A DNA stretch of 57,828 nucleotides from Girardia tigrina (taxonomy: Eukaryota). Of this stretch, positions 24,358-57,828 are shown piece after piece (the stretch's first letter is position 1; each line of letters begins with the position of its first letter). The stretch covers positions 1 to 57,828 of the forward strand of contig MQRK01226513.1 of assembly GCA_001938485.1 (NCBI GenBank). Direction: 5' to 3'. A program made the position numbers and the translations under genes. The notes beneath the pieces are model-generated. The model worked only from the letters and a program-made list of their open reading frames with translations, did not search any database and had not been told where the DNA came from.

Positions 24358-24924
24358 AAAAATTATTGAAATTTAAAATTCTATCAAAATTTGCATTTAT
24401 TAAAACAAAAGAGTAAATAACAAATTCGTAATTTATTACCTATCAAAAATAATCAAATTTCTGATAAACACTAAGTACAAATTTACATAATTAGATACAT
24501 AAAATAATCATAAAAGTCTACATTTAAACCATCTTTACAATCGATAAATTAGAATTCATTAAAATAGAATTTAAAGTAATCCCAAGAAAATAATTCATAA
24601 TACATTCACAAATTAATCATGCCATACTTTAAATCTAAATTAAACAATTATCAGGACTAGAAATACACAGATCCGAAATTAGAAATGTATTGGAACTTTA
24701 CAGAAAAGTAAAAATTATTAAGGAAGCTCTTTGATATGAAAATAACTGTACAAATTATACACAAATCTCACAGTAAAATATCAATCACAAAGTAATTCAA
24801 AAAAATTATTTAAAGCACTTTCAACAAATTCATCCTGCATAAATCACTAATAATGAAATTTCAATTTATTAATTTAAGTTGAAATTTGAAAACTTTAAAA
24901 TTAAAAAGGAATGAAAGAATTTTT

Positions 24925-27900
24925 TTAATTAAAATAATTTGGATTTGAGCGATATAACTGAGAATCATTGGGATTCGTAGATTGAAAATTAACTGAATTT
25001 TGTTGTGGCAATCCTTTTTGAGGCGCCATCATTTTTGAAAAAACTTGCTGAGAACCTTGATAATTAATGTTGGTTCCGTTAGACATTTGTGGATAATTTC
25101 CAGTTGGTCTAATCGAACCAGGTGGAGATTGATGATTTTGAATATAATTCAAATTATTCATCATGAAAGGTGGTCCCGAAGACGGAGAATAATTATTCAT
25201 CGGATGATTTGGTATTGGTATACGATTCATTGGAAGAGGCATGGGATTGGAAATCATTCCCGGTATGGATTTATTATTTGAAACGATATGATTACCCATT
25301 TCTTGAATATAGTTCGAGTTCAGTTGTTGTGATATGGCGGGATTATTGACATAATATGGTATTTGAGATTGATTTGATTGTGTAGATGTTATATTATGCA
25401 TTCGTTGGTGTTGAATCATTGAATTTTGAGGTACAGTTGTCGAGGAATAAACAGGGTGCTGGGCCATCATTGCCGGCTTATTCATCTGCCTTGACATTAC
25501 ATGACGATACGCTGGCATGTAAGAAGGATTGTTTCTTATCCATTCATTGAGCTGAAATCAAAAAAATATTTTAATTATTCTTTTGAAAAATAATTTTTAC
25601 TTTTAAATGTCCATCGGGCTGATTCAAAAGGTTCCCGTACATACTTTCTACCATTACAATCTCTTTATGTGACGGATACCCTTTATTTATGGCTTGATAA
25701 TTGCCATTTGGATACATTCCGCACTGGGAATTATTAATGTCACTCATATGAGAATTCATTGGAATAGGAACATTTTGATTCGTAGGATGGATATAATTTG
25801 ATTTTAAATTGAATGATTGATTGGTTGTCGGAGTATTGATTTTAACTGGAGTAAATTCTAAAGTGGTATTGTTGGAATTATTTGATAAAGGACCAGAATT
25901 TTGAACATATTGATATTGGGATTGGGCAATGGAATTATTTCCCGAGTTTACAATTTCTTGAGCTGAAGCGGAGGATGGATTATTCGAGACATTACTGTTA
26001 CAACGCATAAGTGCCGTTCGTCGTCGGAGAATTTGTTTTTGGAATAATCGCTGCTTAGTTTCTTGTTTTTTCAGTTTTTGTTTTATTTGTTGACAATAAA
26101 TGATCATACACTTTACATCCGTACAGAACTTGGCGTGATATGCTGACAATCTCACTACTGGTTTACAATAATTACATTTTAATCCAACAATACAGTTTTT
26201 GTTATGAGAAACGAACGATTTGAACTTTTTACAATTTGACATTCTACAACACGCATCTCTGCAAGTAGCGGCATGTTCGAAAATTTTGACTAATCGATCA
26301 AGTCTGCGCCGATTTGTTTCTTCGCAATTTTCATCGGATTTGAAACTGGAGGAATCATTTTCATCTTCCACGCCGGATCTGATCTTTTCGAGAGGATGGA
26401 TGTGTTTTTCTGTCAAATAGCATCTAGGGCAAAGATCATATTCTTCACAAGTTGGACAATGATATCTGGTTTCTATCTGAGCACTACAGGCATTACAAGT
26501 ATAACAGAAACTTTGTTTTGCTTCGTTATGTAATTCATAACACATCACTAATGTCGAGTATAAAGTTCTACGCAAATTGGAAAATTCCAAATGTTTCGCA
26601 CGAGCCATTTGGAGAAAATTTTCACGACCATCCATCAATTCCGATTCAATAGATTGATCAGGATCAACAATATCTTTGAGATTAGCTACATTTTTCTGTG
26701 GATGTAATCTTATAATGAAGAAGTTGTCTTTATGTTTCTCCATTATATCCAGTACCTTTTTAAAAAGCTCATTACCGGCATCACTAGAATCATAGAATTT
26801 TTTTCTCTTCGATGTTGCGATATTTGTTGTTTTTTTCTGTTTTCGTTTTTTGGGTTTTTTATTTCCAATATTATCTTTACTTATTTCATAAACATCAAGT
26901 GAATCGTTATCATCATCATCTGGAGCGATTTCTTTGGCTTTCAAATTATTTTGTTCAAATTCCTTTAAAATATCTTCAAATGCATTTGGCCAAAAATCTC
27001 CTTCAAAATACGGTATTTGATTAACTGAACTTATTGCTGATAAATGAGCGTCTTTAAAGACATCTTTGTAATCATCAATAACTAATTCTTGAATTCCTTT
27101 ATCCAACATTTTTGTATACCACTCCTGTAATCTCTTTGGCTTCGGAATACGTTGATCAGGGGGATGAATATGGAAAATATAATCATCTCCTTCACTTGGT
27201 GGACAGGCCCAAATATGAGCCATTACATAGCCCAACTTTTTCACATAATCTAAATATCCAACCAAAATCTCATAGTACACTTTAGTTCGGTGTTTGGATG
27301 GTTCAAAGAATTTAACAGAATCCAGATATGCCACATAAACTCGTCTTCTATTTGGTTCCGGACAATCAGATCCATATTCTTGAACATGTAAACCAAAAAA
27401 ACAAACTTCCCGACCTTGACACTCTTGAAAAGCAAAGATTGCTTTTGAACGATAGGGAAATGAAGTTTCTGCATCACCAAAATACGATTTCACTCCTGGT
27501 TTTACTTCTGTGACTTTTTTAACATTTGAAAGAACTCGAATGATAACATTGTCTGTTGTTATCTCATTTTTCTTGAAATAATCACTAACTCTTTTTTCCA
27601 AAAAATTACTCAATGTGCAAGACGACAAACGTTTAGCCGTATATTTATTTTCCCTTTTCTGTATATTATTTACACAATTTTTGCAATAAAATGTCGACCA
27701 TATTTCATCAATATGACAGGCGCATACTTTATGCCATTTTCGATTACATCTAGCACAAAACACAAATTCTTCATGAATTTCTACATTATTCTTTTTTTTT
27801 ACTAACAATTCTTTATTAACATTTCTAAAATATTAAAAAAAGTATTAAATTAGTTTTACTTAAATCAAGGAAACACTTACAAAAATTCATTAGATTCACA

Positions 27901-30900
27901 AAGAAATCTAACTTCAGTCGAACTATCCGAATAGCATTTTTCACAACACAAATAAGAATCAACCAACATTCCAGGAACCTTATCACTAATTGAAACTAGT
28001 AAAAACGTTTACATATCACGAAAATCTTACTTTGTACTTTCATTTTGATAAGCATAATAATGTGAATCCTTACTAATCGAACAACATTTTTCCGTACAGC
28101 ATACTAAAGTCAATGTTTGATAGACTTCAGCTCGACCACAACAAAATCCCAACTTTACCATCAACTCATCTATTTGAACTTGAAGATCATTCATACTCTA
28201 ACGATAAACTAAATTGATTGACAGATTAAATTTTATTGCATTACCTGTACAAAATCTTTTTTCGATTTTCCTTTTTTTTTAGTAGAATTACAAGAATTTA
28301 TCAAAATATTAAAATCATCAACAATCAGCCAGGGATTCTCATATTCGCCATCATCTAATTTTTGATTGATAATTGATAATGATACTGGCTTATAGTTTAT
28401 TTTAGAAGTATCAAAAGTATTTGAATTTTTCGAATCATTTAAACTCAAAAACGCTTGAACGTTTTTGTTATTCTTAATGAAATCAAAAAGTACTTTAAAT
28501 TCCGTATTTAATTCTTCTTTAGTCCATGATTTTAACGGAGAGTCTTGCTTATTGACTATTTCTACCGCTGTTGTTGTCATTGTGGTATTTGTTGCCGGAG
28601 CCGTTGTTGTAACAACTGTCATTTCTTGTTTAATATCTTTGACTTTAATCTCATTTTTCGATTCATCTTTAACATTATCGAAATCCATCAAAAGTTTTTT
28701 CTGTCGCTGATATTCATTTTGAAGAATTTTCTCAAAATGATTCAAATGATCCGTATCCGAACAATCTTTATTTAAATTGGAAAACAAATCGGAATCATTG
28801 TTATTATTTACAGAATTTTCCATCGATATTGTCGGTGATTTGGAAATAATTTCCGGATAAGTAACACAATTTTTCTGACTAATATTAAGTTTTTTGTGAA
28901 TAATAAAACAATTTTCTGCTAACAATCTATAATATTCATCTATTGTACTTGATTTCATGTAGCTATCGTTTTCGATCTTTTTCGCGTGATCGATTATATT
29001 TTTCATTCTTTCATCTTGATAGGCTTTACCGATTTCTTTTACCGGTAAAATTGTGCTAACTCTATTAATATTAAACATTAGTTAATAATAAAAATCGATT
29101 TTTTTTTATTTTGTAAATACACCTGTATACATTTAAATAGGGTATATATATCATAAAGTTACAATTACAAACAGATATTTAAAATTTGCTAATCAAAATT
29201 GAATGATTTTCCATTACAATAGAATATTTAAATTTAAATAGGCAATTGGACACAAGTAAAATCATTAATTGTTTAATAATATGTCTAATATAATTTATCA
29301 TTATTTTTCATGAAAAAAGGTTTTGAAAAAAAATATTTTTTCAAAAATTTTTCTTTAAATATTTTTATCTTGTTATAGGGATTTACGGGAAAATTATTTC
29401 TTTACTTATTTAACGAGAAATAAACTGAAACTATTAAAAAAACAAAAAAATGTAATACTGTGAAGTCCATCTGTTAATAGTAAATATTCATTTGTTAATA
29501 AATGTTTAATAAAAATAATTATTCGATATAAAAATCCAAAATAAATATAAATTATGGAAGAAAACCAAGAACGATTCGTGTGAATCTATCACAATCCAAA
29601 CTGTTATATTCGGTAAATTCGATTCCCAAAGAATACCCCAAACGAATCTAAGCCAAAAAACAAGACAGTACTCGACTGGTTTCAATGTTGCATGCCCAAA
29701 CAGAGAAATTATCATGATTACTGGGACTATTCTATTGGCTACTTGCAGAACCGCTTTTTCTGTTGTAATGTTGATCGGAGTCGTTGTCCGCCTCTGGTGG
29801 CCGGAATAAAGTATCATGAACTGAAAGAAATTAGACCGGTTAGAGAATCCGGGCTGGAAATGTCGTTTGATTATTACCAAATTGGTATATTATCCGATCC
29901 GGAAAAAATAACTCGAGTGATTTCTAGAATGGTCCATTGGATTAGAGATGACATCCTAGAGATGGAGATTCGATAACAGAGACCATCAATTGGACTATAA
30001 TTGCTTTTGACACTTGTGTTTCAATGAAAATAAATATATTTATATTTACTATTTTTTCTAAACTTTTTGTTAAATAAAAAGATATTGTGGAAAACCTAAA
30101 ATTTTCGGGTTTTTTTTCACATTTTCTGGGCTGATATGAACCGCTGGTCGGTCCTTGAGCTGGGAGCTGAGGATGAATTTGATATATACCCATACATATT
30201 TAAAAGTTAAATATAAGGATGATTTTTAGATTTCGATTTATTCTCTAATGGATACATTATAGTAATGATGGAACATAACAGTATTAATTATTTAAAAGAT
30301 TTATTAAACATAATATTCCACTTAATAATCTTAAATTTCTGTTTTTTAAACCATTTTCATAAACAGTAAAAATATCACCTTTAATTAATAATTGTAAAAA
30401 GAAATAATATTCAAATGAATAAAATCCGAATAATTAAACGGCATTTTACTTTTTGTTCGTAACAAATACCCTATTTAAATTATCAAAGTTTACAGGTGTA
30501 AGAAAATCCAAAATAATAAAAACAAAAATCAATAAAACTTACATTCTATTGATTAATCGACTTCGAATGTTCTTATCCACAGTGATTCGATCTTTCATTT
30601 TATTATCACAAATATCTGGCTTGAAATCGACACATTTTTTGTCCGAATTGTTGAGAGCATCGATTTCCGGATTGACAATCGATTCCTTCGATTCGTGATC
30701 GATATTATCGATTTTGTTTTTCGTACACTGTTGTCGCGATTTAATCGGTGCACATATGAGACAGGTGATTTTTCCACATTTTTTCCAATGTGATAAAATT
30801 CGTTTCGAAGTCGAACAATGAGAATAGGGACATTGTTTGTCTTTATTACACGCTGACATGTGGGACAAGACTTCCCTCATCATGGCACAATGGGGACTCG

Positions 30901-31054
30901 AGCACGGATTCATTCCGTTGATTTCGATGTGTTTTTGACAACGACAAGCATGGAAAATTAAAATCAATTGTTGTTGTATTTGTTTTCGTTTCTGGGCATC
31001 GTCTGATGCAATGGCATTACCATTAACACTAATTGACATTTCACGATATATCAT
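24925..31054 (-). CDS. CBP/p300 histone acetyltransferase, compact (~1,500 aa), about 6 exons
   Basis: TAZ1 (QQQLILIFHACRC..C..MREVLSHM..C, 30539-31054). KIX (DERMKNIIDHAKKIE..DEYYRLLAE) and bromodomain in the 28233-29078 ORF. Small RING/PHD exons ~27880-28200. PHD-HAT-ZZ-TAZ2 in 25571-27808 (YLDSV, HIWACPPSEGDDYIF, KRLQEWY, PYFEGDFWP). Q/P/N-rich last exon ends at 24925. Confidence 0.95.
29554..29976 (+). CDS. possible small nested antisense gene in CBP intron 1 (~122 aa, two CC pairs)
   Basis: GC-richer island in an AT-rich intron. ATG 29554 (MEENQERF) plus a 54-nt GT..AG intron (29578-29631) joins in frame to NTPNESKPK..DWFQCCMPKQ..FFCCNVDRSRCPP..EIR*. The donor GTGTGA is weak. Confidence 0.3.
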
Positions 31055-32599
31055 CAAATTTTACACTTCTAAAGCCAGGAAAAAAATGTTATACGAGTAA
31101 AAAAATGAAGAAAATTAGTTTTTTTTATAAATATCGATAAAAAATATTTATTGAAATTTAATTTAAAAACCGGTAGCCATTTATAAATATTATGTATAAA
31201 TATAAAACATATTTTAAACAAATAATAACCATATGAAATTTTCGAAAAGTATTTTTTTTGTTGTAGTAAAGTTTATTCGACAATTTTTATTACCTAATTT
31301 GTCAGAAAACGTAAAACAATTTTTTTGTAAAACAAACTTTTTTTTGAAAATTGAAATGAAATTGACAATTTAATAATTTACTTTCTTGATTTTTAATTCT
31401 TGAGAAATTGAGAAAATATTAAAAATTTACAAACAATTTAAAAAAAAATATTTAATGGATTTTTAAAAAAAAATTTATTTGAACCATAACCATATCTTGA
31501 AATACATATTTTTTAAACTTGGTAAAAAAATTAATTTATCATGTTCAAGAATTACAAAACATTGTAAATTAAATGTAATAAATTAATAATTAAGAAAAAT
31601 AGATAAGTTCTTGGATTTTCCTTATTATTTAAATAAATTAAGAAAAATTAATATCAGTTTTTTCGATTCTGAGCGATAAAAAATAATAGAATTGTATATA
31701 TATACAAAATCAAACTGATATCTCTAAGACTAATTTACAAAATAATGACAATTTAGTAAACGTTACATTAAAAATACCGTTCTTAGAGAGAGCAAATGAT
31801 TTCTAAAAATCATTAATGATAAGAACTTCCTCGTATTTTAAATTGAGAGTAATATTTACTGCAAGTAAAAAAATTAAGTTTCTTTTTAAATAAAACTAAA
31901 ACTTATGTTAGTGTGCAAGCAAACATATTTTACCAATATCAATGAATTGTATATTAGTGAGACGAACAGTCATCTTATAATTAGATTTACTGAACACACT
32001 CAATAGAGTAGAATTAACTCCATTCTTAATAATATATTACATAGCAAAGATTGAAATAAAGTCAATTGTAATAGCGAGTTTTAAATTTTGATAATTATGA
32101 GATGATAATCCCTGAAGCATTGTTAATTATGTATTCAAACCATGCTTAAATGTTTAAAGTGATTTATCTAATCATATATTGTTTAGTTTTTAAATATTTT
32201 TTAAATTTAAATAAATGAAAATTTTAAATAAGCCTAAAAATTGAGTGATGTTGAGTAAAAGCCTGTAGTTATATAAACGGCTTGAATTTTAAATTTTCAA
32301 TTAATCAACTGATGATACCAAAACTGGAGAAATATGTTTTAAATGTATATACAATTTAATTCTTTTTTTAACACCCAGAACCGTAAAATAAACACATATA
32401 TTTGTTTACCATCGCAATAAAAAAGTACGGAAATTAATTACAATAAATTTATGATTACGAAATAATTTAATGTCTTGGTGTTGATTATTATAAAAATCCT
32501 ATTTAGAAATCTCTGTTCATACAACGCCTCAGATTTCCAATACAGATGTGGAAGCCTGAAATTCAATTCTCACGATTCACTCCACGAGAAAATTTGGCA

Positions 32600-35629: not shown

Positions 35630-36030
35630 TCCCTTACAAGACGAGTCCCTGAGTGGAACTCGTGAGACGACTACACATTCCCGAAGGAAGTTATCAGCCC
35701 TGAAAGAGTAATAATTAATTAAAAATCAGACAGAAAACAACAAAGTTGCTCACCGGGGTAACCAACAGAGTTAGGAGGTCAACCGACCCTCCCATGAAAG
35801 AGCATCGCGAGTACGATTCCTGAGCGAAAATCGCAGAGCCTCGGCACCTTCCTGAGAGAAGATATAACCCCTAGAAAGATTCAAAAGTTAATTAACAAAT
35901 ATAAAATAATTAATTAAACTTATCATGACTCAACAGCAAAACACGAGATCACCAGACGACCATGAATCATCAGTGAATAATCTACGCGTGTGTCCTGAAA
36001 ATATTAACGTATGTGTCGACACACAATTAC
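35630..36030 (-). mobile_element. fragment of the distal (intron-bearing) part of the long LTR family, inverted
   Basis: The reverse complement matches 38030-38290 and 49030-49300 (..taag..ttaattaa..ag|gggttatatct). Confidence 0.6.
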
Positions 36031-36037
36031 AGTAAAT

Positions 36038-38330
36038 TGTCACGACCCCTTTGAGTAGAAACATTTCTGATGACTCAAGATCCCCCAGTGATTGTTAAGG
36101 GTCAACCACAACCCATTCAGATTTTATTTCACTTTTAGACGTTATTGTGTAACAGAGTCGGACGCCTCCTGTCTTGCCTGACATCTGTCCAGCAGTGCCA
36201 AGCTCAAGGGACCTTCGGGTTCGATTCAAGACAGGACGGGCTGTGGGCTCCCCGCCCAGCTCAATATCGTTCGGGGATGACTTTGTATTATTTGCTCTTT
36301 CGATGAAGGTATCGCTCAGGTTTGTGTAGAATGTGTTGATGATTGCAACTCGAAATACTGGTATGTGATATGTATGGTCAACTTGCGGCAATGTTGTGTC
36401 TGTATGCGGACTTATGGCACTGTTGTATAATGCGGGTAACTAACGGCCCGATTATGTATCTTGTAGTGTTGACGTCTCCACTTGTCTAAAATCATTAATT
36501 ATATATCATCATATATTCATATAATATTGTGTGTCATTAAGTATATTCGCTTAATATTATTAAATATCGCCAACAACAATTAGATATTTTATTATGTATA
36601 TCAAGTATTACTATGTATCGTTAACACTGTATATTGTTCTGTATAATTAGCAGTTTATCTTTACTCTATATCAACCAATTTCGTATCCACTTATTTATAG
36701 TGCAGCATTATATATGTAACAGCATATATATCAATAATTATCTATTTTTATCGATTTATTTTACAGCAGTTTTGCTCATCAACAGCAGTTCTTTATTCAC
36801 ATCTAAATTTCTTCTGATTCGACGAGGCTTCTTTTACTACTCAATTTTCTCTGCCAGTCGTACTTGAATGAATAACTAGTCGGCGTGTCATTCCTATAGA
36901 GCATATATCTCTTTAATTTTCTAAGCGAATCTCTTATTGGTTTATCAGCCTCATTTATCAATGACAGATTATTACTATTCGTGTCTCTAAAAGTGAAATC
37001 TAAAAATAGAATCATTATTAGTTTATTTACATTTATATCAATAAGCAAGCGTCTATACAATCCTTTCGCGTCCATCGACTGGGTTAAAACGTGATAGATT
37101 AATTCATTATTGTCCCGTATCGACGGACATAGCATCACTCAAATAGTTATCTACGCATAACGTGATTCTCTTTTGCGTATAGTTCAATAGAATCGATCTC
37201 ACGCCTGTGATAAGTATAATTCTCATTTCCTGTTCTCTTACGGAGTTCTCATTGTCGGCGTAAGTTCTCGCATTATGCACAAACTCAAGGTTTCTGTTAT
37301 CAGAACCATTCTGCGCGTGGTTATCTCGGAACATCTCTTGTGAGGATGGCGGCTACGATGACGACTGGGAAACTTACTCTCTCTCTATCTAACTTATCAG
37401 AATGAAATAAAATTTAAGGTTAGTTTGTATTAATTATAAAAGTAAAACCCATATCTATAATACATATATTCAGAATCATCAAAGAAATGAACAAATGTAA
37501 ATAAAATTACAATATGTTTGGTATCCGGAAGTCCGTTCTCGAAACGTCTGTAAGTCTTTCCTCAAATGGTCCGTTCGTTCTCAAGATCTTTCGTTTGGTG
37601 TCGGTCGTTTGTAAATCTCGTGCATTCGAGTGGTTCTCTGTTTTGGATTATTCTCAATAATTTCTTATGGTTCTTTCATGTTAATAATTCTCTATGAGCT
37701 CAAATTATTTAAAATCGTTCAGAATTGTTCAATTATGGTTTTTAATTTTCGTTCTAAATTGTTTTAAACAGTGTCTAAAAGTTGTCTAAAAATGGTCGTC
37801 CTTTATACCACGGTTCTGGCATGCTATCACTCTATGAATTCCAATCGCAATCTGCCAACGAAGAATCAAACACATCTCTCAATCGTGGTTGGCCAGTTGT
37901 TGGTGATTTCGGAGTGTACGTGTCAGTGTGCCTCTAAAATTTTTTCGGTAATTTTGATTTTATATAGGAATTGATGATTGTGTGCTTGTAGGTCGCTGGT
38001 GTCATGCGGTTCGTGAATCATGGGTTAATCATCGTGAATAATCACACGGTGATTTCTCGTGGATTTTTTGCTGACTCACGTAAGTCTTAATTAATTTCTT
38101 ATATTTGTTAATTAATTCTTCCAATTATACAGGGGTATATCTCCGTCGGGGAAAGTTTTATCAATTTACGGATTTCAACTAGGGATGCGGCTCAATGAGA
38201 GCTTACTGTGAAGGTTCGGCTGGTCTCGCAAGTCTTTTGGGGAGTTCGGCAAACAAGGTTGTTAATTTTTCAGGTTCGTATTTAATTAATCTGGGAATTT
38301 CTTAGACTAATGGCTTTATTAAACTTCTGG
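36038..38330 (+). mobile_element. long LTR-like unit, copy A (TGTCACGACCC family)
   Basis: TG start and first ~350 bp shared with 45873 and 56163. Distal intron-like block shared with 49030-49300. 3' end not defined. Confidence 0.65.
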
Positions 38331-38335
38331 AATCC

Positions 38336-39105
38336 TGTAGCGAGCTGCCATGAAGAATCTACGAGGGGAGGAGCCGCTCTATCTTGTTGCAACTGCAATA
38401 CTTATTCAAATACATGTATTTTACGTTATTGCTTCTCTTTTTTCTTTTCGACGTTTTGTAATGCATTACATGAGTTGGTGAAATTCGGACCGCAACAAAA
38501 TCAAGTTATCAAAAATTTTTGGAGACACACGGGCAAGTACACACCAAAAGCCAAAGTGCCCGACCAACCAGCATCGTAGAATTTTGCAGACTTCTTATTG
38601 GCGGAAGACCATTGGCCGCGATGAGATAGCGGGGTGTTGCATCTACAATATAAAATAACAGTCATTTTTTCAGTTGACGAACACATTTTTGAAACCAAAA
38701 TAATAGCTACACTTACGTGTTACATTGAATCATAACTTTGCTGAAGAAAATCCAAGCGAAGATTAGAACAGTTGATCTACGAGCATCACCGCAGACGAAA
38801 GGAACGACAACTTATTAGTAAAGACCGGCGGCATCACTGAGCAGGAAATCGACTGACGAATTTACGACACCGAGAGGACGACCGCGAAAGACATTTCGTG
38901 TAATCGACGTGTCGACGAGCGAAAGGACGAATAAATCGACAGATACCGCCTATTGAGACATTCTCTAAGTCCCATTGAACTTCTTTTACTTGTAATTATT
39001 ATTGTATAAAACTAAAAGAGAATTGCTTTTTTTATAGGTTAATTCAAATGTTAATTTATAATAAATCAAATCTCTCTCCGTTTTATAACTTTATATGTGA
39101 TTACA
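38336..39105 (+). mobile_element. possible solo LTR of another family
   Basis: TGTAG...TTACA ends, GC-rich body, AATAAA near the 3' end. No matching TSD seen. Confidence 0.35.
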
Positions 39106-43028: not shown

Positions 43029-44463
43029 CTAATATTCTTCATCGATGGTCGTGTCTTGAAACTGCTGATATTCACTTATCAAATCATTTAAATTTGATTC
43101 AGCTTCAGTAAATTCCATTTCATCCATACCCTCTCCAGTGTACCAATGCAAGAAAGCTTTTCTTCGATACATAGCTGCATATTGTTCGGCTATTCTTTTG
43201 AAAATCTCTTGAATTGCAGTATTATTTCCAATGAATGTTACAGCCATTTTCATTCCTCTCGGAGGAATATCACACACAGCTGTTTTAACATTACTGGGAA
43301 TCCATTCTACAAAATAAGCACTGTTCTTGTTTTGCACATTTAACATTTCTTCATCAACTTCTTTAACCGATAATCTTCCTCTAAACATAGCCGCCACTGT
43401 TAGATACTTCCCATGACGCGGGTCACAAGCAGCCATTAAGTTTTTGCAGTCAAACATTTGTTGGGTCAGATCATGAACTGAATATGTTCTATATGGTTGT
43501 GAATGACGGCTGGTTAAAGGTGCAAACCCGGGCACAAAGAAGTGTAAACGAGGAAAGGGAATTAGATTAGTTCCTAATTTTCTTAGATCTGCATTTAATT
43601 GACCTGGGAATCTCAAACATGTTGTTACTCCTGACATTGTTGCACTAACTAAATGATTTAAATCCCCATATGTTGGATTACTAAGTTTCAATGTTCTAAA
43701 GCATATATCATAAAGAGCCTCATTGTCTATTGTAAATGTTTCATCTGCCATTTCAACTAATTGATGTATTGCAAGAGTAGCATTGTACGGTTCAACAACC
43801 ACATCTGATACCTATAAAACAATATATTAGATAAGTGTTTAAATATTATTACCTTTGGAGAAGGGTAAGTTGAAAAAGTGCACACTATACGATCTGGAAA
43901 TTCTTCTCGAATTTTGCTCAGCAAAAGTGTTCCCATTCCAGAACCAGTTCCTCCACCAAGAGAATGAACAACTTGAAATCCCTGTAAACACTCACAAGCT
44001 TCAGATTCTTTTCTGACTAATTCTAGAACAGAATCGATAAGTTCTGCTCCATCAGTATAGTGTCCTTTAGCCCAATTGTTTCCCGCTCCTGTATGTCCAT
44101 ATGCAAAATTGTCAGGACGGAACAAACTTCCATATGGACCACACTTGACAGAATCCATAGTACTAGGTTCCAAATCAGTTAATATAGTTCTCGGTACCAG
44201 TCGACCACCTGAGATCATAAACAATTTCGTTTACAAACGTTCTATCAAGTATACCTGTAGCTTCATTATAATAAACATTAATTCTTTCTAATTGTAAATC
44301 ACTATCTCCTTTGTAAAATCCATCAACGCTTAATCCATGTTCATCTGATATAACTTCCCAAAACTGAAATTTTATTTTATAGATAAATGAACATTTCAGG
44401 TCTAACTTTAGCTCCCATTTGATTACCACACTGGCCGACCTGAATGTAGACTATTTCACGCAT
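43029..44463 (-). CDS. beta-tubulin, divergent, 434 aa, 4 exons (44463-44407, 44363-44255, 44208-43853, 43811-43029)
   Basis: [15 protein letters not shown] start, [43 protein letters not shown]. Three GT-AG introns of 43, 46 and 41 nt restore the frame. Confidence 0.97.
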
Positions 44464-45872
44464 TTTAGATGTAATTGAGGCTCTTCTTTCTACGTGTTGC
44501 TAAGCTTTATCTAATTCTAATCGATGATTTTAAAATTTTAAAATGGATTGATTTTCAAAAATTTCTAATTTAAATAATGTTTATAAGAAAATTGCTTTTA
44601 TTACTCAAAAGTTTTGTATCTTATTTCAGCATAATGACTTTGAATCTAAAACAAAAATAAAATGAAGCATACTTAATCTTTTATAAATTCGGTCTTGATT
44701 TTTCATTTGTGTTTAATAATTTTAATTTTATTTTGTACATTTTCTAACAGAATACTCATTTTTCAATTAAGAAATTTGAGTTTTATTTTCAAGTTTTTTA
44801 TTATTAAGAAAAAAGTGGAAGTTACAGTATGAATCAATTGTACAATAATCATCTCTATTATATTTTTTTGTGTTTTCATCATCAAAATGAGCCGTAATTT
44901 TTTTTCATTACAATAAACATTGTATTTTTCTATTTCTTTATTTTACAGCTAATTTAATTATTTTCCGTCTTTCGATCACAATATTTATTGGATTCATATC
45001 CCCAAAATTGCTCTAAACCACTAGAATTATCGATTTCGCTCGTTCTAAGTAATCACTGCATCTATCACTTCCATAATAGCTATCAGTGGCTAAACGATAT
45101 ACGAAAAGATTTATTTTTCTTAGCGGGAAAATATTACTACCGTCTGAATGTTCAAAGTTTGAAAAATTATCTTTGATCGACTAATCAGAATCGCAATCTG
45201 CGTTTACTTAGTCAATGTATCCATCAGATTTGTTTTAGCCTGAATCCATTAGTCTCAAAAAATCTGGAACTGTAGATATTTCAATGGATGTATATTGTAA
45301 AATTGTAATGGTAAAGTATCGGGAAACGACAGTGAGGAAGAGGAACTGTATCCAACCTCTCCATAATGACTGACATAAGTGCAAAAGGAACAGTTGAATT
45401 GTGCAAATACTGATAATAGTTACAACTATAAGAGACACAATGCACAAGGACACTTATGCCAATTAGGTGGCAGTGAATCGCCTTAAAAATTCTCAATGGC
45501 CATTAATTTACTCATTTTCATTAATATCTCAGAATTTTTTGATCCAACAAGCTTTAATCGAAAGGGAGTTTCGACTCCTAAGATAATAAAATTGGAACGA
45601 TCAGATTGAGTATTGAAAGAAGAACTGTAGTATACACTGCACGACATAAGACAAGGATGAAGAGATGTCACATAGAGAATCGGCAGTGGTAAGTTCTTCC
45701 TTGGGACATGTTTGAAGGCGAAGGCAGTACAAGAGATCTCTCAATACATCTGTCGTTCTTAGCAATTATTGTATGAGGAAGTTGAAGTGGCCTCCAACAG
45801 GATGGTGCAACAACAGGATGGTGACCTGTTGGTTCACATTGTCTCCTTTCGATCAACCTAGATGGAAGGAAG

Positions 45873-48800
45873 TGTCACGACCCATTCGTTTGTAGCAGTT
45901 TTGAACGCTCAGAGTCCCCAGTGACTATTAAGGGTCAGTCAAAACCCGATTTCAGCTTATACTATTTCATAGACTGTTTTAATACTCATTTAAATGCTAG
46001 ATTTATTTATGGGTCGGACACCTCTTCTCGCTCGACATCTGCCTGACAGTGCCGAGTCTGAAGGGCCTGCGGGTTCGGATAAAGACGGGACGGGCTATGG
46101 GCCCCCCACCTAACTTAGAATCGATCGGGATATGTTTCGTACAAATATTCATCAGTAGATTTGGATCACGTCTATGCTTAATAAGTATGCTGAAACTTGT
46201 TGTACGGTTATGTCGATCTATAACTTGTGGCCTTGTGTTAAGCGATGTTGAGCTTAGGGCAATGTTGTGTAATGTGGCTTGCAGTACTGTTAGGTTTCTA
46301 GGAGTATTACCAATAACAGTATATGTCGTTATCGTTGTGCAGCTCATTTATCTCGCAGCATATCGACAATCAGTCCCTTTGTACCTCGCACGGATTCATT
46401 GTTTCCCTACTATATAACATATAACAGTTGCATTTATATTCATATAACTTGTATTGATATAATTTATACTTATGCCAGATATATTTATATCAATCAAAGT
46501 AATTATTAATATCATGATTACGTCGCATATACTTATATTCATTTACACAATCATTAGTATCAGAGCTAAGTAAACTGATTAAATCACGAAATTTGTTCGA
46601 TCACTATCGCGTCAAATTCTTTAAAATATCCTATTATTTCGATTTGGTAACCTTACACCAGAATCAATTCAGAGTTTTTAATAAGATTGAAAAACTAACT
46701 AAATCAGCGTTTTCAATTTTCCGTGGTTAAATAACAATTTATTACATTAATAATTTCGCGATGAATTAATTATCTCAGTGAATTCTCACTTATGAGCTGC
46801 AATAAAAAATATTAATTCATAACATTTCTTTACTAGGGATTCATTAGCTTGTAATTTTATTAAAAGAAATCTCAATTTAACTTTCAATTTAACTCTCAAT
46901 TTAATTCCAGATAAAACAAAATTCTACTAAGTTGATTGTTGGATATTAGATATTTTAATTATTTGAAATATTTAATATTTACTTTTTTGATAAATATTTT
47001 GTTTAAATATTATCAATTAAACATTGTTTTGAAAATAAACTTTTCGCATGTTACAAGCTATCCGGTAGAGAAAGACGAAGACCGCCTTATCTAAATGATT
47101 ACATTGTGGATTCAGATTCTTCTGTGGACGAATCTGGTGGGAGTGTTGGATATTAGATATTTTAATTATTTGAAATATTTAATATTTACTTTTTTGATAA
47201 ATATTTTGTTTAAATATTATCAATTAAACATTGTTTTGAAAATAAACTTTTCGCGTGTTACATTGATATTCATAAATTGATAAAATAATTACGTTAATAC
47301 AGATCGGCGGTTGTAGAAATTCCAGTTAAGAATTTTAATTTACAATTCCAGTTAATAATTTTAGTTAACGATTCGAGTTAATAGTTTGCAGGATTTCCTA
47401 GAAACAATTCACGTAATTAGCTAACTCATAGAAATAATAATTCATAATCTAATTCAAAAATCCTAAAATTAAAGTAAATGGTGAAAATTAATTAAATTAC
47501 TCCTAAAATTCAATTGCAATCCTAATTTCTTAAAACTCGTGATAATGATAAGACTTCATCAAAAAAATTGTTTTATCGATACAAATTGCATCGCAACCTG
47601 TAGACACATTTTCAATTTTTAGAAACATTTTAATGGAAAAAGAATTTTAACCTAATTTCTTATGAAACAACCGCATAGAAGAGGTAATTCTTTACATTTT
47701 TATAATCCTCACTTTCTGATCTCAATTTTCATTCCTTGCAGTTCGTACAAGTCAACTTAGTTATGTTTATCCGACTAACTCCGAAACTACGGTAAATGAA
47801 ATTTCTAGATCAAAATTCTAAATTCTAAATTAATTCTCTATTTACAAACTGTAATCGAAAAACCGCATCCCTATTTACTATATATATCATCTAAAACCTC
47901 TAAACCGTATTATTGATAACTAATATTCAATTATTATTAACGAAATTCCACTTTAAAAATCAGAAATAAAAAAAACAAATTAACAAAATGACTAAAATTA
48001 TGGGAAAAAGCTATATTTGAAATTCAAATGTTCCCCGAATACTCGGTCGTCTGACACGGGTAAACTCGTGCTCCCGCATCCTCGGTAATTAACTCAGCGC
48101 GGCTCTCCCGAGGGAACGATTCTAGGGGCACCGAAACTACTTCGACGATAATCGGGTCGGTGTGATTACCGACGCTCCTCCAGCGCGCGTTTGAGCGCAA
48201 ATTCTCTCGGGGCATAATTGAAGGCGACGACGGCGGGGCGACGACTGTGGTTAAAAGATTAAATAAACGATGGGAACACGATCGTCCGTGCTTATGATGC
48301 CCCTATTTGACCTATTAAACGATATTAGACTGAACGATTAATAACAACGCTGTTTGTTCACGCTTTCCGGGCAATCACTTAAACTACGACATTGACACAA
48401 TAAAATCAAAACGTATATAAAAAAAATAATAATAAAAAATTGTAAGGATTTTGCCCAAATACTTTTATTGTGTAAAACTAAAGAGTAAAAAAAATAAAAT
48501 TACATCAAAATCACGCGGTGCGTGTAAGTGCCCGGAGGTCCGCTCGGTGAATTGCTCGTCGTTAACTCGTGTAGGCTCCTCTGTTCGTCGACGCGTCTCC
48601 GGATAGAAGTGTCCCTTTGGGTATCGTGGATCGATTTCGGTAATAACGAGAGATTCGTAGATGTTACGGTCCTCATCTAAACTCGGTCCAATGTTTTCTT
48701 TTCGAAGTCCTTCTCGGTAAATTGCGTTCGCGGTTGCGTTGAAAATCGACGTCAAAATCGTGCGTGAAAATTATAAGAAAATTTTTAAGATAAAATTGTG

Positions 48801-49596
48801 GAAAAATTGTGCGAAAAATTGTGATTGAATGTTTTATTTATAACACTCACCATTTCGTTTGTCGGGGTGTGTTCTAATCGTGGCCGCTTCTGGTTGGCTG
48901 TTACCAGTAATTTCGGGTTTCTATTTGTAAGGGCTGGTTGTTTTCATGCAGCATGTCCAAACTGCTTTGTCACAAGGCTCCTTTGTCACCGATGACTATT
49001 CATCGCGTGACGCTGCTCTTTCTTTGTGGGCCTGACTCACCGTAAGTTTTATTTACTGTACTTTGTTTCACTTAATTGGCCTTTGTTCTTCTTTAATTAA
49101 TTTATGTATCTTTTCAGGGGTATAACTTTTCAGAGGAACGTGTCAGGACTTTGCGGGTGACCTTCAAGGATTCCTCGTCTTCGGGGCTACAAGTGGATGG
49201 TCCGTTGGTCTTATAACGTTAATGGCTCGCCCTGGAGGTATTCTTTGTCATTTCCTGTCTGGTTTTTAATTGATTATTTTCTTTTTAGGGTTGATAACTT
49301 TTCAGGAGAGTACCTCACGACCTGGTGAGTTTTCTTCGAGGGTTTGTCTTACAACAGGCTATACGTGGAGGGTCGGCTGGCCTTCTACGCATAATGGGTC
49401 GTCCAAGAGGTGATTTAATTATTTTTTTTCTTTTTAATTAATTGTCTTCTTTTTAAAGCAATTAACTCCTTTCTCAGCGTTTTCGAGGTTCGGCAGTTCC
49501 ATTCCAGAGATACATTATATTATTTGGTTCTTCTCATCGGGTATGCTTTCATTTCACTTGTTTGATTTTCCTTATCTCTCGTTTTTAGTTGTGATA
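45873..49596 (+). mobile_element. long LTR-like unit, copy B (~3.7 kb including nested TRIM)
   Basis: Starts TGTCACGACCC directly after the purine tract GATGGAAGGAAG (PPT-like). Candidate end TGTGATA (49590-49596) is an imperfect inverse of the start. Confidence 0.65.
46937..47262 (+). mobile_element. TRIM / miniature Copia-derived LTR element
   Basis: 119-bp LTRs 46937-47055 and 47144-47262 (TG..CA, 1 visible mismatch), 5-bp TSD TTGAT, 88-bp interior ending in the purine-rich GGTGGGAG. Confidence 0.92.
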
Positions 49597-51080
49597 TAAT
49601 GCTGCCTCTCCGACATGGATGATCAAAGACGATCCAGGGACCCACCTTTTGTGTCAATAGTGATTCAAATAAATGTATTGATCTCATGGGTCTTTCTTCT
49701 TTATATTCTTTTTCTTAATGTTTATAACCATATGTATTTTATATTATGTATTTGATTTCTCGACCGCAACAGAAGCAAGACTAGAGTACTTCCTAATTGC
49801 CGGAAGTGAGGGATAATGTAGTGCGCAAAGAGATATGTAAAAAGAGATTCGTTTCGTCCTACCAAATTGTTCGGTAGATTACTGTATCTCTGGTCTCAGG
49901 AAGTGACCTTCATAGATTCTATACATGGAAATGGGGTAAAAAAAAGCCATAAAAACTGGTCTATGTGATTCTATACATGGAAATTGTGTCGAATCATGTA
50001 ATGACAGGAATATGGTACAACTGGTCCCAGGGAGTGACCTCTATAGGCTTATATACACCGAAGTGGGTAGAAGAATATATAAATGGGAGTGCAGTGAAAT
50101 GGCCATATTAACATATCGATAACGGATCAGTGGAGTTGTAGAGTCCCCAGGGAGCAGATGGTATCAGTTTTCTGGGTGTGTAGAATGTATGTTTGGTGTG
50201 TGTAGTACCTGTGTGGCGTTTGTAGTGCTTATGTGGTGCCTGTGTGGCGTGCGGACACGATCACTCAATTGAAGGGTGCGTGGAGAGGTCGCTAATGAAA
50301 GAACTACTGTGGAAACCAGGGCACGTGTAAAGGTCGGCTTAGGCTCGATACATTGTGCGAATTAATGTATGTAAGAACGGGGAACTTTTCCTCACAGACA
50401 AAAAAAATAAAGATTAGGATCGACAGTGGTAACTGTGTCACCTTTATCATAAAAAGCTGAATGAGGTCACGAATCAACAGGGTACGCACCATAAGTCTGG
50501 TAACGTTTGACAATGGATATCCTGGGTAAAGTGCAACTTTGTGCGATACAGCTTGATGATTTTAACGTGGGTACTGCAGAAGAGATTTATGTTGAAAGAA
50601 TAGCTGCAGATGTCGACATGATCGTGGGATAATAAATTATTCTGAGACATGGATTAAACATATAGGTAGTAGGTGAGAAAATATGAATAACTTTTGGCCC
50701 TAACTGAACAAGATTATGATTCTCACTGCAGTTTCTTGACTTGAAATGGAGAGTGTTTAGAGAAGAAGAAATATACTTTATAGAACATTTATTCTTCATG
50801 TAAAAGTCGGTGATTTTATTTTGTATTTGTTTGTGATTTTCATAAATTTTAAAATATCTGTCAAACCAACGCGGTAAAAAACCTAAGTAATTAATTTATC
50901 TACAATTTAAATTAACATTTTAATTAAATAAAATCTTATCAATGTAGTCAAATTCCTTTGAATTCATTCAGTTTTAATTAATTATAGTTTGACCATTATT
51001 TTTTGGAGAGACAACATTCATTACAACATACTATACCTCATATAATACATGAAATTGACAAACGATCACACAAAGAGAGA

Positions 51081-51735
51081 GGGTACGCCGACTTTACCGC
51101 GGCGACTTTACCTCGGACAACTTTACCGCGGATGACTTTACCACGGATGACTTTACAGCGGGTGACTTTATCACGGGCGACTTTACCGCGGAAAATTTAC
51201 TACAAAATTGTCAATAAGTGAAACAATGTCATCTAAAATATAAATAAAAATTTTTAATTATGTAATGATAAAACAATGAATACAAAGGTTTTAATTTTAA
51301 AACATAAATGGATAGAACATTTCAGATCGTCATGACATTTAATTATTCTTTTTATTATAAAAAATAAACAAACATAAGAAAAATTAGTAAATTTCAAATT
51401 TAAAAAATTCAAATAACATTCTAGAACAAATGAATAACACACGAAAAATATGTAATGTGTAAATAGAAGAAAGATACAAAAAACATTAAGCTGGAATAGT
51501 AAATATATACTTTAATCCAAAAGTTTAAATTATTAGCAACGCCTCTAAGATAATCCACTATTGGTAAATTATTGTATTGTTCAATCCTCTCACTTACTTT
51601 GGCGTAAATTTTCGATGAGAATTCTAGGAATTCTTCACCTGCTCTAATGCGCTGAAACATTAATTCAACAAAATGTTGCTCAGTACGAAATTGATTTATC
51701 AAACTATAAAAAGTTGGGTGATTGCAAGCAATAGA
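51081..51735 (-). mobile_element. Mutator-like (MULE) element 3' fragment with 15-bp tandem terminal repeats
   Basis: About 7 x GACTTTACCGCGGNN (51090-51191). HPTFYSLINQFRTEQ..IVDYLRGVA resembles a MULE transposase C-terminus. Confidence 0.65.
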
Positions 51736-52090
51736 ATTTTAAAATTAGTAAATCAAAAAATTAAAATTTTTATATTCATTCTTTATGCAGATAGAACTCT
51801 ACTTTGCCAACAAAGTTTTTAAAATTTAAAAATTTAAGATTTCAAAAATTTTAAATTAAAACATTAAAAATTAATATAAACTACTTGTAATTTATAAATA
51901 GATATCTTGCAATTAATATTGTTCGGGAACTCCAAATTTTCCGTTTTTCCACATTTTTGGATCATAAAAAGTTTTTTTTCGATCAAATTTTTACATAATC
52001 ATTTATTGTCATCGAGAATGAGTAAGTGTGCAAAGTTTGAAGAAAATTGATTGAATAGAAGGCTTTCAAAAATAGGTTTCTAAATTCCAT

Positions 52091-52127
<37 letters not shown>

Positions 52128-52132
<5 letters not shown>

Positions 52133-53171
52133 CTTTTTGTCTAGTAAAAAAGGTTTGAGAACTCATTTTATATCTGTTTTACCTTATGTCAGAAAGTACT
52201 ATAATTGAATTTTCCCACTGAACACAAATTTATTTTACAGGAAATTTAAAGACATAAACGTTTTTATAAGAAAATGAGAGACTCAAAGAGTTTATTTATA
52301 ATAAAAACCGACCTGACTAAAGTTTATGTGGAAAAATCAAAAATATATTCTACTGTATTATGATACTGTACCGTATTATGCTTTAAAACAACTTCCAGAG
52401 TTTTCTCATGTTTTCATCAGACAAATCATCCCGATTTCTTTTCTTGCTTTGTGAGTTTAGAGCTGGATGTTTGCCTCGAAGCAGCAAAGAGTCTACGTAC
52501 TTTGTAGGATCCAAATATGTTAGTGGAGGGCAGACCATTCTGATGAATAAAAGTACCGAGACTGTTTTTGTCATAAGCGAAGCTCTCGTTGGGGTGATTA
52601 TCAAATTCATTTGTGAGAATCCCCTTTCGCACTCGCTGGAAGAAATGGAAATTGTATTAAGACCATGTATTAGAGGAAGAATTCTTTCAGAATATTTTCT
52701 TTCCGTAAGATAATCACGGAATCCACGAATGATTTCTCTTGCGTTAAGTTGCAGCCTGCTACAAAATTTCTCAATTTCTGCTTCTCCAAATGTCAACTGG
52801 TTGTTCATGTTATCTGTCCAATGGCTCTGATCTAGTATGCTAATCCATTGAACAAGTTCAACATCTTCATTAGACAGTAATCTTTTCGTAATTGATTCGC
52901 TAAGTTTCTCGTAAAAGACATTTTCATCAATAGGAGGATAATTTTTGCAGTTTCTGTTGTGTAGTACAATTTCATTAAATATTAGATGCTTGGCATTTAT
53001 ATACCTTGTTGTTTATTTGTAAACCGTAATTTATGTCGTTCCCGTGAGTTCCCACTGTAAAAATGACTGACAGTAAGTAAAACGCCGATTATTTTATATA
53101 AATATAAACGAATCTGGCAAAAAAGATATGGGAACTGAGTTCCCATGAGTTCCTACTGAAAAAAAGCACTA
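52128..53171 (-). mobile_element. internally deleted hAT transposon inserted in a (TA)n tract
   Basis: TIR TAGTGCTTTTT/AAAAAGCACTA. ORF 52383-52808 carries the hAT dimerisation motif ISSSECERGFSQMNLIITPTRASL. TA repeats lie on both sides. Confidence 0.88.
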
Positions 53172-53676
53172 TATATATATATAGAAAGTGAGCTAATAAA
53201 AATAATGGAAAAGGTGTTGCTCATAATTTAAACTTATTGGATTAAAGTATATGTGAGAAATAGTTTTGAATGGTGTTTATTGTGTGTTGTTTGGTATGTT
53301 GTTTTAGGATTGTGTTTCTCCCACCCAGATGGAAGATTGATGTCTTATATATTTTAAAACGTCGAGTTGTTTAATCAATTATTAAAAGTTAAATAATCAC
53401 TTTAAAATTAAACTAATATTTCATAAATAATCTTTTAATAATAATTTTAATAATATTTTGTAATAATTAAATTATAATTTAAAGTATATATTATTTTTGT
53501 AATGATTAAATTGTATTTTAAATTTGTTTGAATAATAAGACATTAAAGAATATTATTAAAGATTATCAATCAAGAACGATGACGAGCTACGCAAGTTTTA
53601 CGGAGAATTGTTGTAGTGACAATTGAAATTGTGATAATAATAAATGTAAAGGAAACTCAATTAATGTTCTTAATTG

Positions 53677-54010
53677 TATATATTTACTATTCCAGTTTAA
53701 TGTTTTTGTATATTTCTTCTATTTACACATTACATATTTTTCGTGTGTTATTCATTTGTTCTAGAATGTTATTTGAATTTTTTAAATTTGGAACTTACTA
53801 ATTTTTCTTATGTTTGTTTATTTTTTTATAATAAAAAGAATAATTAAATGTCATGTCGATCTGAAATGTTCTATCCATTTATGTTTTAAAATTAAAACCT
53901 TTGTATTCATTGTTTTATCATTACATAATTAAAAAAATTTATTCATATTTTAGATGACATTGTTTCACTTATTGACAATTTTGTAGTAAATTTTCCGCGG
54001 TAAAGTCACC
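53677..54010 (+). repeat. ~330-bp inverted copy of 51178-51510
   Basis: Near-identical reverse complement ending ttttccgcggtaaagtcacc. Confidence 0.9.
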
Positions 54011-56162: not shown

Positions 56163-57828
56163 TGTCACGACCCATTTGTTTGTAACAATTTTGCGCGCTC
56201 AGAGCCCCCAGTGGCTATTAAGGGTCAGCCACAACCCGGTTGGAATTTATTACTCAACTACGATCACTTTGTCACGACCCATTTGTTTGTAACAATTTTG
56301 TGCGCTCAGAGCCCCCAGTGGCTATTGAGGGTCAGCCACAACCCGATTTCAGTCCGTACTATTTTACTAACTGTTTTAACACTCATTTNNNNNNNNNNNN
56401 NNNNNNNNNNNNNNNNNNNNNNNNNNNNNNNNNNNNNNNNNNNNNNNNNNNNNNNAAGGGCCTGCGGGTTCGAATAAAGATGGGATGGGCTATGGGCCCC
56501 CCACCTAGCGGAGTGTCGCTCGGGGATGATTTTCCTTTTTGAACTAAAATTTGATGCCTTAACCTCTACGATGAACAACTCGCATTTAGCTGTATTGGAA
56601 TTATATAACTAGGGCCGTCACAACAGCCTTATAAAATCATATTTCTTAAAACAATAGCGCGCTATAGGGCTGAACAATCAAACCCGCTCTTGTTCGTACA
56701 GGAACCTAACTTATAAAACGTAGGTTAAAACTCCTACAACTAATATGGTCAACTTCTGAATCCCTCTTCGTCTTAACTCGTAGAGTATGACAAACCCTCA
56801 TTACGATCATTAACCGTTTTTATTATTACTGACGCCTAGGAGTAAACAATCAACAACAGCACTAATAGAATTTATCTCAACTATTAGGTGAGCGCGTTTG
56901 CAATTCTCTATAACTCGATTTACCTATTTTATTCTCTTTTTTATTTCATCGAGTTAATTGACTAATTTCGCAATTCAATTCCGATAGCAGTGAAGTTTAT
57001 CTAAAATCGTTCTTGAGGGGATAAATTATTTCACTTTGCTTTAAATCCTGATAAAAAAAATACTAAATTATAGAATGGTAACTCCCTAGAATTTGATTAA
57101 ATTATCGCTTATAAATATCACTACTATCCTAGGAATTTGACAAAATTAAATTTACCCAAAACACGAATGTTTTCCCCTAACCAAAATGCGGTAAAAAATT
57201 AATTATAAAATTAATTCAATGATAAATCAATTGTAAAACCTGTCTATAATAAGACGATCACGCGAATAGAACGGGGACTCTTTTATCGAACGTAATTTTA
57301 ATCGTAGTCTTTATGAATTCCTTATTTCTCTTTATAAACTTATTTGGGAGAATAATATTCGCTGAATTTAATCAACAAAATTAATCGAAATAAATAAAAC
57401 GAATTGAAGATAATAATTACGTAAAACTAATGTCAAAACTTTACTTATGTAGAACTAATCATTTTACTCCCATTTAAAACAGAACAGCTATCGTTCGGGT
57501 AGTTTAGTCTTACACTATGATACGTCAAAACCCGATAAAAATCAGTAAATAAAATACGGTCTAGTAATAAAAATTCACACTACTCTGTCCTTATAATTTT
57601 GACTTAAAAAAAAAGAAACGTAAAACCGTAAATAGTGGAAGATTACTATAAAACACAATTATAATCATCAATAAAATATTCTGAATTCCCCAAACATTGA
57701 AGCCTTTGTAATCATTCCTAATCAAACATTTTCATTACGCTTTTCAATGAATATCCTCTTATTTTTATTTTAACCCTGTATTTCGCTAAACTCTGTACGT
57801 TAACTACTTACAAGTCACTCAAAAAAAA
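56163..57828 (+). mobile_element. long LTR-like unit, copy C (first ~76 bp repeated at 56270), probably extending beyond the window
   Basis: TGTCACGACCC start and conserved GC-rich block matching 45873-46110. Confidence 0.65.

Follow-up and report, generated by a model that had tools for sequence, protein, structure and literature searches.

A covarying U5 RNA domain in Burro-like Gypsy LTRs of Girardia tigrina with a probable role in tRNA-Pro-primed reverse transcription

Analysis of a 57,828-nt stretch of Girardia tigrina DNA (hereafter the window) revealed that a conserved block at 45873-46133 on the minus strand is the 3′ end (U5, probably R-U5) of an LTR, and that this block is a strongly covarying RNA domain whose compensatory changes fall on the sense strand of the element. 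Comparison of its copies suggests that the domain probably serves, as in retroviruses, to initiate reverse transcription from a host tRNA-Pro primer. Its orientation, the primer-binding site (PBS), the host tRNA match, the link to a polyprotein and the covarying stems are all directly supported by the data below. As far as we could find, the domain is new, with no prior description in the literature searched and no match in Rfam.

LTR copies, orientation and extent of the block

Three LTR copies begin at 36038, 45873 and 56163 of the window, as a first-pass annotation of this DNA had claimed, and all three lie on the minus strand. Copy B (45873-49771) is a 3899-bp solo LTR of a Burro-like Gypsy element, with TG...CA ends and a 4-bp target-site duplication (TSD; 45869-45872 and 49772-49775); its homology with the 5′ LTR at locus L129 stops at the same terminus. 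Copy A (36038-38497; 2460 bp) likewise carries a 4-bp TSD, and the matching left termini together with the 4-bp duplications identify both A and B as solo LTRs. Within copy A, the block spans 36038-36280, the core motif 36216-36222, stem P-b 36164-36212 and stems S1/S2 36089-36114, all on the minus strand. Copy C (56163-57828) runs off the contig end; it holds a run of N, its terminal 107 nt are duplicated in tandem (second start at 56270), and its core motif and hairpin P-a lie at 56465-56471 and 56478-56506 (minus strand). Copy A also adjoins an inverted similar piece (35860-35953 versus 38048-38142; 77% over 98 nt), which may be a related LTR of greater age that faces the other way.

The annotation had read the block as the 5′ end of the LTR. 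The junctions of LTR ends with the PBS, the tRNA-Pro match and the TSD-bounded termini of copies A and B instead place it at the 3′ end, on the minus strand. In 5′-LTR copies elsewhere in the genome, the LTR terminus is followed by a tRNA-Pro PBS. The terminus of copy B (45873-45883, minus strand) also supplies the 3′ strand of stem P-c, and the terminal ~11 nt of an LTR form its integrase attachment end. The true termini and TSDs also ruled out two other readings: a "TG...CA plus Met-PBS" arrangement on the plus strand near 46560, and a supposed LTR end near 56620.

Searches of the AT-rich, 1.43-Gb genome with the copies at 36038, 45873 and 56163 returned 2549, 3226 and 2157 first-look candidates, of which 40 were scored per query copy, confirming that the LTR family is large. 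Flanks outside the conserved end were unique among 77 copies, except in duplicate contigs and at three loci that have a PBS-like stretch in common on the minus strand. The annotated contrast between a shared end and a diverging remainder held among these copies: about 250 nt are common to the copies, and the sequence beyond falls into many small groups. Among 102 copies of families I and II (described below), 1650 family I pairwise alignments break 60-70 nt past the core motif, far above anywhere else. From this sharp break we infer that the 5′ border of the block, near 46127-46133 on the minus strand, may mark the transcript start, that is, the border of R. Upstream of this one sharp border (46127-46133 and its equivalents), many unrelated types of LTR sequence adjoin blocks that are nearly identical, which suggests that U3 is either exchanged during first-strand transfer or turns over rapidly.

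The solo LTRs of the window lie among coding sequences that include a CBP/p300-like gene (KIX, bromodomain, HAT, ZZ and TAZ), an HSA-domain frame and a tubulin gene (22818-31060 and 43029-44230, minus strand). Mariner fragments are also present, as is an element at 51176-54010 with ~230-nt terminal inverted repeats around a 209-aa frame that has no Pfam match.

The element, its relatives and its primer

Matches to Gag lie 7.1-7.9 kb downstream of the block and PBS in four contigs. In one contig, a single long frame, which contains assembly gaps, encodes capsid, zinc knuckle, ubiquitin-like region, fusion glycoprotein, protease, dUTPase, reverse transcriptase (RT), RNase H and integrase, in that order. 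Profile E-values were 9e-84 for the fusion glycoprotein, 9e-37 for RT and 6e-12 for integrase; the capsid, knuckle, ubiquitin, dUTPase and protease matches fell below curated cut-offs, yet they stand in the published order. Judged by this domain order, which is the same as that of Burro, the element is a Burro-like, envelope-carrying Gypsy retrotransposon. Giant Burro-like elements exceed 30 kb from LTR to LTR; the present assembly is fragmented, and none of the contigs examined holds both LTRs of one element. At locus L130 (3400-9600), short coiled-coil-like accessory frames occupy the interval between PBS and Gag.

Burro and GYPSM1 are described as giant Gypsy-like LTR retrotransposons of dugesiid planarians (PMC6431247), and Burro expression as being under PIWI control (PMC8532177). 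Burro/GYPSM1 and the present element share a single polyprotein with Gag, CCHC knuckles, a ubiquitin-like region and an in-frame Env before the protease; a dUTPase-like domain between protease and RT, followed by RNase H and integrase; and multi-kb LTRs, thousands of copies and a long pre-Gag region (PMC6431247). The BIR, BCL2, ankyrin and MATH domains of Burro, in contrast, had no Pfam match at E ≤ 0.01 in the four frames scanned on one gapped contig. The Burro section of that account is silent on PBS, primer tRNA and U5 structure (PMC6431247). In the literature searched, neither the primer and U5 structure of Burro nor a PAS for it is described; the PBS may already be named in the original Burro publication, its supplements or the Repbase entries, which lie outside that scope.

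A homologous core occurs in three further LTR families (II-IV), which brings the total to four. The PBS loci of families II and IV lead to Gag-like sequence (~30-48% identity), and 20 kb of one contig of family III showed no linked coding region. The core pattern had 4,241 exact genomic matches and none in the control. Further divergent LTR families (L431, L432, L450 and L337) keep the core motif and the bulged-A stem and differ in their downstream parts. Matches of the core pattern in public collections (76 in metagenomes and 8 in viral contigs) were dismissed as chance: none has the downstream PBS-like motif, and only two have both apical stems.

The pattern of LTR end plus PBS gave 148 exact junctions genome-wide, against none in the control. 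Among 38 junction rows, some of them from duplicate contigs, the PBS was the exact 18-nt complement of host tRNA-Pro in 18, and it matched the CGG isoacceptor in five more. A PBS search gave 174 matches, with several different LTR termini. At the junction loci L091-L139, the PBS has two end forms that match different tRNA-Pro isoacceptors and are followed by 1-4 variable letters, which is consistent with the PBS being re-copied from the primer in each cycle. At L144 (minus strand, near 609-643), the PBS runs on into further antisense tRNA-Pro sequence, which looks like a past read-through by reverse transcriptase of tRNA position 58, where it normally halts.

A second, 9-nt PBS-like motif lies at 45912-45920 (minus strand), with one mismatch in copy B; it is kept in families I-III and was not seen in family IV. 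A third PBS-like G-run sits inside the family I hairpin P-a (46099-46108).

Covarying stems on the sense strand

The best-supported covarying helix is P-b (46020-46066, minus strand), with 17 pairs and internal loops. In 31 sequences hand-picked from 55 representatives, 95.4% of its positions were paired and 12 of the 17 pairs had changes on both sides. A separate set gave 93.7% paired and again 12 of 17 pairs double-changed; it comprised 43 of 49 pattern-found copies (six short, length-variant or redundant rows were excluded), and the search pattern fixes part of the P-b apical hairpin. None of 500 shuffles reached the percentage paired or the covariation score in either set, and slid registers were only 28-54% paired. 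A weaker measure, the pair count, was reached by 5 and 40 of the 500 shuffles. Mapping onto a tree, itself made from the columns being tested, gave 15 pairing-preserving double changes, compared with a mean of 2.0 and a maximum of 7 in 500 partner permutations. Sense-strand G-U cells exceeded A-C cells by 60 to 8 and 55 to 12. P-b is capped by a bulged-A hairpin (46036-46051, minus strand), in which the C-G, A-U and C-G pairs around the bulge are nearly invariant.

Other stems complete the domain. The alignment fold places hairpin P-a at 46083-46111 (minus strand), with a 7-pair outer and a 4-pair inner helix; across 72 copies it shows 112 G-U cells and one A-C cell, under a search pattern that restricts letters. 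The 5′ strand of P-c (46011-46019, minus strand) pairs with the LTR terminus in a manner resembling a retroviral U5-IR stem. The P-c partners change together across families I-III and within family II, and a separate terminal hairpin takes the place of this pairing in family IV. Between these parts lies an AT-rich loop (45948-46010, minus strand) that is free in both length and sequence.

Two interleaved stems, S1 and S2, are predicted at 45922-45947 (minus strand). S2 corresponds to the first hairpin of the earlier annotation, which proved real and covarying: it was 100% paired in 28 variants selected from 73, and four of its five pairs had changes on both sides. S1 was 78% paired, with two of six pairs double-changed, its register having been fitted to family II and its sequence constrained by the selection pattern. 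The two stems probably form an H-type pseudoknot by this model and could instead be alternative hairpins.

In each of the four families, the alignment fold had a lower energy on the sense than on the antisense strand (-86/-76, -80/-67, -96/-87 and -83/-52). Single-sequence folding z-scores ranged from -1.5 to +0.1 in families I-II and from +1.0 to +2.0 in family III, reaching -5 to -6 only in family IV, and single-sequence folds of the leader differ between copies. By eye, U5 and the leader could plausibly form a stem across the PBS in families I-III; this stem is absent from family IV and inconsistent in single-sequence folds, and we do not claim it.

A near-invariant motif complementary to the tRNA T arm

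Next to P-b stands a near-invariant GAACCCG (46070-46076, minus strand), the complement of nt 50-56 of host tRNA-Pro, which is the T-arm strand freed when the 3′ 18 nt anneal to the PBS. We infer from this complementarity that GAACCCG may be a PAS-like element. In 138 copies anchored on features other than the motif, 954 of 966 cells pair with tRNA nt 50-56 (911 Watson-Crick, 43 wobble), and 12 are broken. Conservation is 0.90-1.0 inside the motif versus 0.39-0.70 in the preceding 5 nt (111 main-register copies), and the predicted duplex of motif and tRNA has an energy of -16 to -22 kcal/mol in each of eight copies tried. By family (I-IV), the best perfect helix with the freed tRNA segment coincides with the motif in only 55 of 88, 9 of 36, 0 of 26 and 25 of 26 copies, or 89 of 176 overall.

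Several features bear on how this match is to be read. The chance that a given 7-mer matches the freed tRNA segment is ~8e-4, for a match that was noticed post hoc, and nearly all tRNAs carry GGUUC. One primer tRNA serves all four families, so the partner of the motif never varies and trans-covariation does not arise; wobble-compatible changes in the motif are transitions, which are common anyway. Invariance equal to that of the motif is also seen in the A that follows it and in the bulged-A hairpin, neither of which tRNA pairing explains. GAACCCG is separated from the PBS by ~190 nt, a greater distance than for known PAS elements; given the predicted transcript start, its position in the LTR fits a PAS upstream of the PBS in genomic RNA.

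Proposed initiation mechanism

In the proposed mechanism, P-b and P-c would act as closed side-arms that fold away ~190 nt of U5 and set GAACCCG near the PBS. In free RNA, the CCCG of the motif would pair with the CGGG of the PBS and mask both, a pairing that is possible because both mirror the tRNA T-stem. With nucleocapsid as chaperone, the 3′ 18 nt of tRNA-Pro would anneal to the PBS and the T-stem would open; the freed tRNA nt 50-56 could then capture GAACCCG in a PAS-type contact that licenses minus-strand synthesis. P-c would keep the attachment end of the LTR base-paired, in the manner of a U5-IR stem, immediately before the primer, and the pseudoknot, the 9-nt PBS-like motif and the bulged-A hairpin would be accessory parts of the same leader.

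A more elaborate version, which we advance tentatively, would turn the Burro U5 into an RNA switch that senses its primer by docking tRNA-Pro at three places: the 18-nt PBS, a remote PAS that the two covarying arms bring close, and the 9-nt acceptor-end site behind the pseudoknot. The PAS would mask the PBS through T-stem mimicry until reciprocal strand exchange with the primer opened both.

RNA runs gave small shares (0.07-0.14) in three of the six runs listed, as contigs only, with one run guessed to be RNA. The block was covered in all three runs at a depth at least 10-fold above that of the leader. This ratio approximates the DNA copy ratio produced by the excess of solo LTRs, and the contig depth is therefore uninformative on expression level, strand and start.

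Alternative explanations

The alternative that survives best, which we nevertheless regard as unlikely, is that the fold is a protein-binding leader signal (packaging, dimerization, export or TAR-like). Gag/NC or a host factor would then recognize the bulged-A hairpin and the GAACCCG..AGG junction, the motif would pair only within the RNA, with the 3′ part of the PBS, and the tRNA match would be a by-product. Such recognition could account for the invariant bulged-A hairpin and the invariant A, which priming leaves unexplained, and free-RNA folds do pair the CCC(G) of the motif with the PBS in several of 12 copies folded. The Ty1 5′ region, as described, similarly unites a pseudoknot with packaging and dimer signals (PMC3592414). 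Pairing with the PBS, however, leaves the conservation of GAA unexplained, since GAA pairs only with tRNA nt 54-56, and protein binding and priming are not mutually exclusive roles.

It is very unlikely that the structure acts on the antisense strand, as minus-strand strong-stop DNA or as an antisense or Pol III transcript. The annotation had read the block on this strand, with a cUNCGg hairpin and a possible Pol III B-box, both of which are the antisense image of the near-invariant GAACCCG, which is what these letters spell on the sense strand. In support, the hairpin has G-U rather than A-C on the antisense strand at two positions, in 15 and 22 of 31 sequences, and 40 of 88 family I copies carry GTTCRA. 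However, none of the five hairpin pairs changes on both sides, in 15 of 31 sequences one pair cannot form whichever strand is read, and P-b G-U polarity and alignment energies favor the sense strand. Counted by family (I-IV), the full B-box GTTCRANNC occurs in 10 of 88, 2 of 36, 0 of 26 and 0 of 26 copies (12 of 176 in total), so that it is lost in families II-IV; with the box not conserved, a type 2 Pol III unit or tRNA-derived SINE is unsupported.

Other structures named in the annotation fared similarly. Its third hairpin (GCUG/CAGC versus GCUA/UAGC) keeps all four pairs in 41 of 72 family I copies, with the GCUG/CAGC form in one of 72; the 10-bp stem of copy A occurs in one of 72 copies; and the supposedly invariant loop varies across families, its pseudoknot with the terminus having better-supported rivals. 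With the LTR end and the strand misread, most of the named hairpins were antisense images or one-copy coincidences. The broader suggestion of an undescribed cis-acting RNA stands in part: the LTR terminus does covary, it has no Rfam match, and a priming signal was among the options listed, whereas the end and strand assigned to it were wrong.

A new self-cleaving or catalytic RNA, with the invariant GAACC..GAAGG junction and the bulged-A stem as its core, is highly improbable. Invariant, apparently unpaired nucleotides are clustered there and are kept between families whose Gag sequences are ~30-48% identical, and Rfam offers no matching family. On the other side, primer complementarity already explains the main invariant run, and cleavage inside U5 would be expected to destroy the strong-stop template. 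Rfam gave no match in the window at the gathering score and, for eight loci at E ≤ 5, one weak unrelated match outside the block; the hammerhead, HDV-like, twister, twister-sister, pistol, hatchet and hairpin ribozyme families were not matched. By eye, the hammerhead did not fit, its CUGAUGA occurring in one subfamily only and antisense, nor did the hairpin, twister, twister-sister and HDV cores. The ribozyme option in the annotation is thus unsupported.

Finally, the idea that the stems are incidental and that nothing but DNA motifs (attachment site, downstream promoter or poly(A) elements) underlies the conservation fits the terminal ~11-nt attachment end and the weak single-sequence z-scores but is largely refuted, and has almost no probability left, given compensatory changes far above controls in two sets and on the tree and strand-specific use of G-U.

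Comparison with known priming systems

In the retroviral U5-IR stem, exemplified by RSV, the terminal inverted repeat of U5 is paired immediately before the primer, and Tf1 reportedly has an analogue. P-c would likewise keep the U5 terminus paired at this position; the U5-IR is a short hairpin, whereas P-c closes a domain of 110-160 nt with a variable loop and a pseudoknot.

The candidate PAS resembles that of HIV-1, where the anti-PAS comprises tRNA nt 48-55 and becomes accessible once the PBS is annealed (PMC3675109). In both systems the 5′ strand of the primer T arm (nt 48-55 in HIV-1, nt 50-56 here) has its complement in a U5 motif; this strand would be freed only after PBS annealing, and the motif may be masked in free RNA (PMC3675109, PMC1865047). 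The HIV-1 contact has itself been described as hard to show by probing, with conservation a main argument for the PAS (PMC3675109). The two differ in the primer (tRNA-Lys3 versus tRNA-Pro), in the kind of element (a retrovirus versus a Gypsy-type element) and in spacing, with ~190 nt and two long arms separating the candidate motif from the PBS here. For HTLV-1, which is also primed by tRNA-Pro, a PAS has been predicted and is described as untested (PMC11251516).

Among yeast elements, Ty1 and Ty3 make tRNA T-arm contacts beyond the core PBS, a likeness to the extra T-arm contact proposed here (PMC5371799), and the Ty1 5′ region, which combines a pseudoknot with packaging and dimer signals, has that pseudoknot near the PBS and tied to reverse transcription, as is predicted for the present leader (PMC3592414). 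Ty1 and Ty3 differ in their short or split PBS, where the present element has a full 18-nt retrovirus-like PBS together with a candidate T-arm site and a 9-nt PBS-like motif inside U5 (PMC5371799, PMC3592414).

Implications

Structured U5/PBS initiation domains are known from a few retroviruses and from the yeast Ty elements. The tRNA-Pro primer and U5 annotation presented here are the first that we found for Burro-like elements, and the core provides a short marker with which their solo LTRs can be counted and oriented. With thousands of natural copies in four divergent families, the domain combines strong scaffold covariation with a wobble-tolerant T-arm signature, and thereby offers a natural test set for the reach of PAS-type priming control among LTR elements. 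If the switch reading is true, PAS-type control would exist in an invertebrate, env-carrying Gypsy lineage, where it would be either older than the vertebrate retroviruses or convergent with them.
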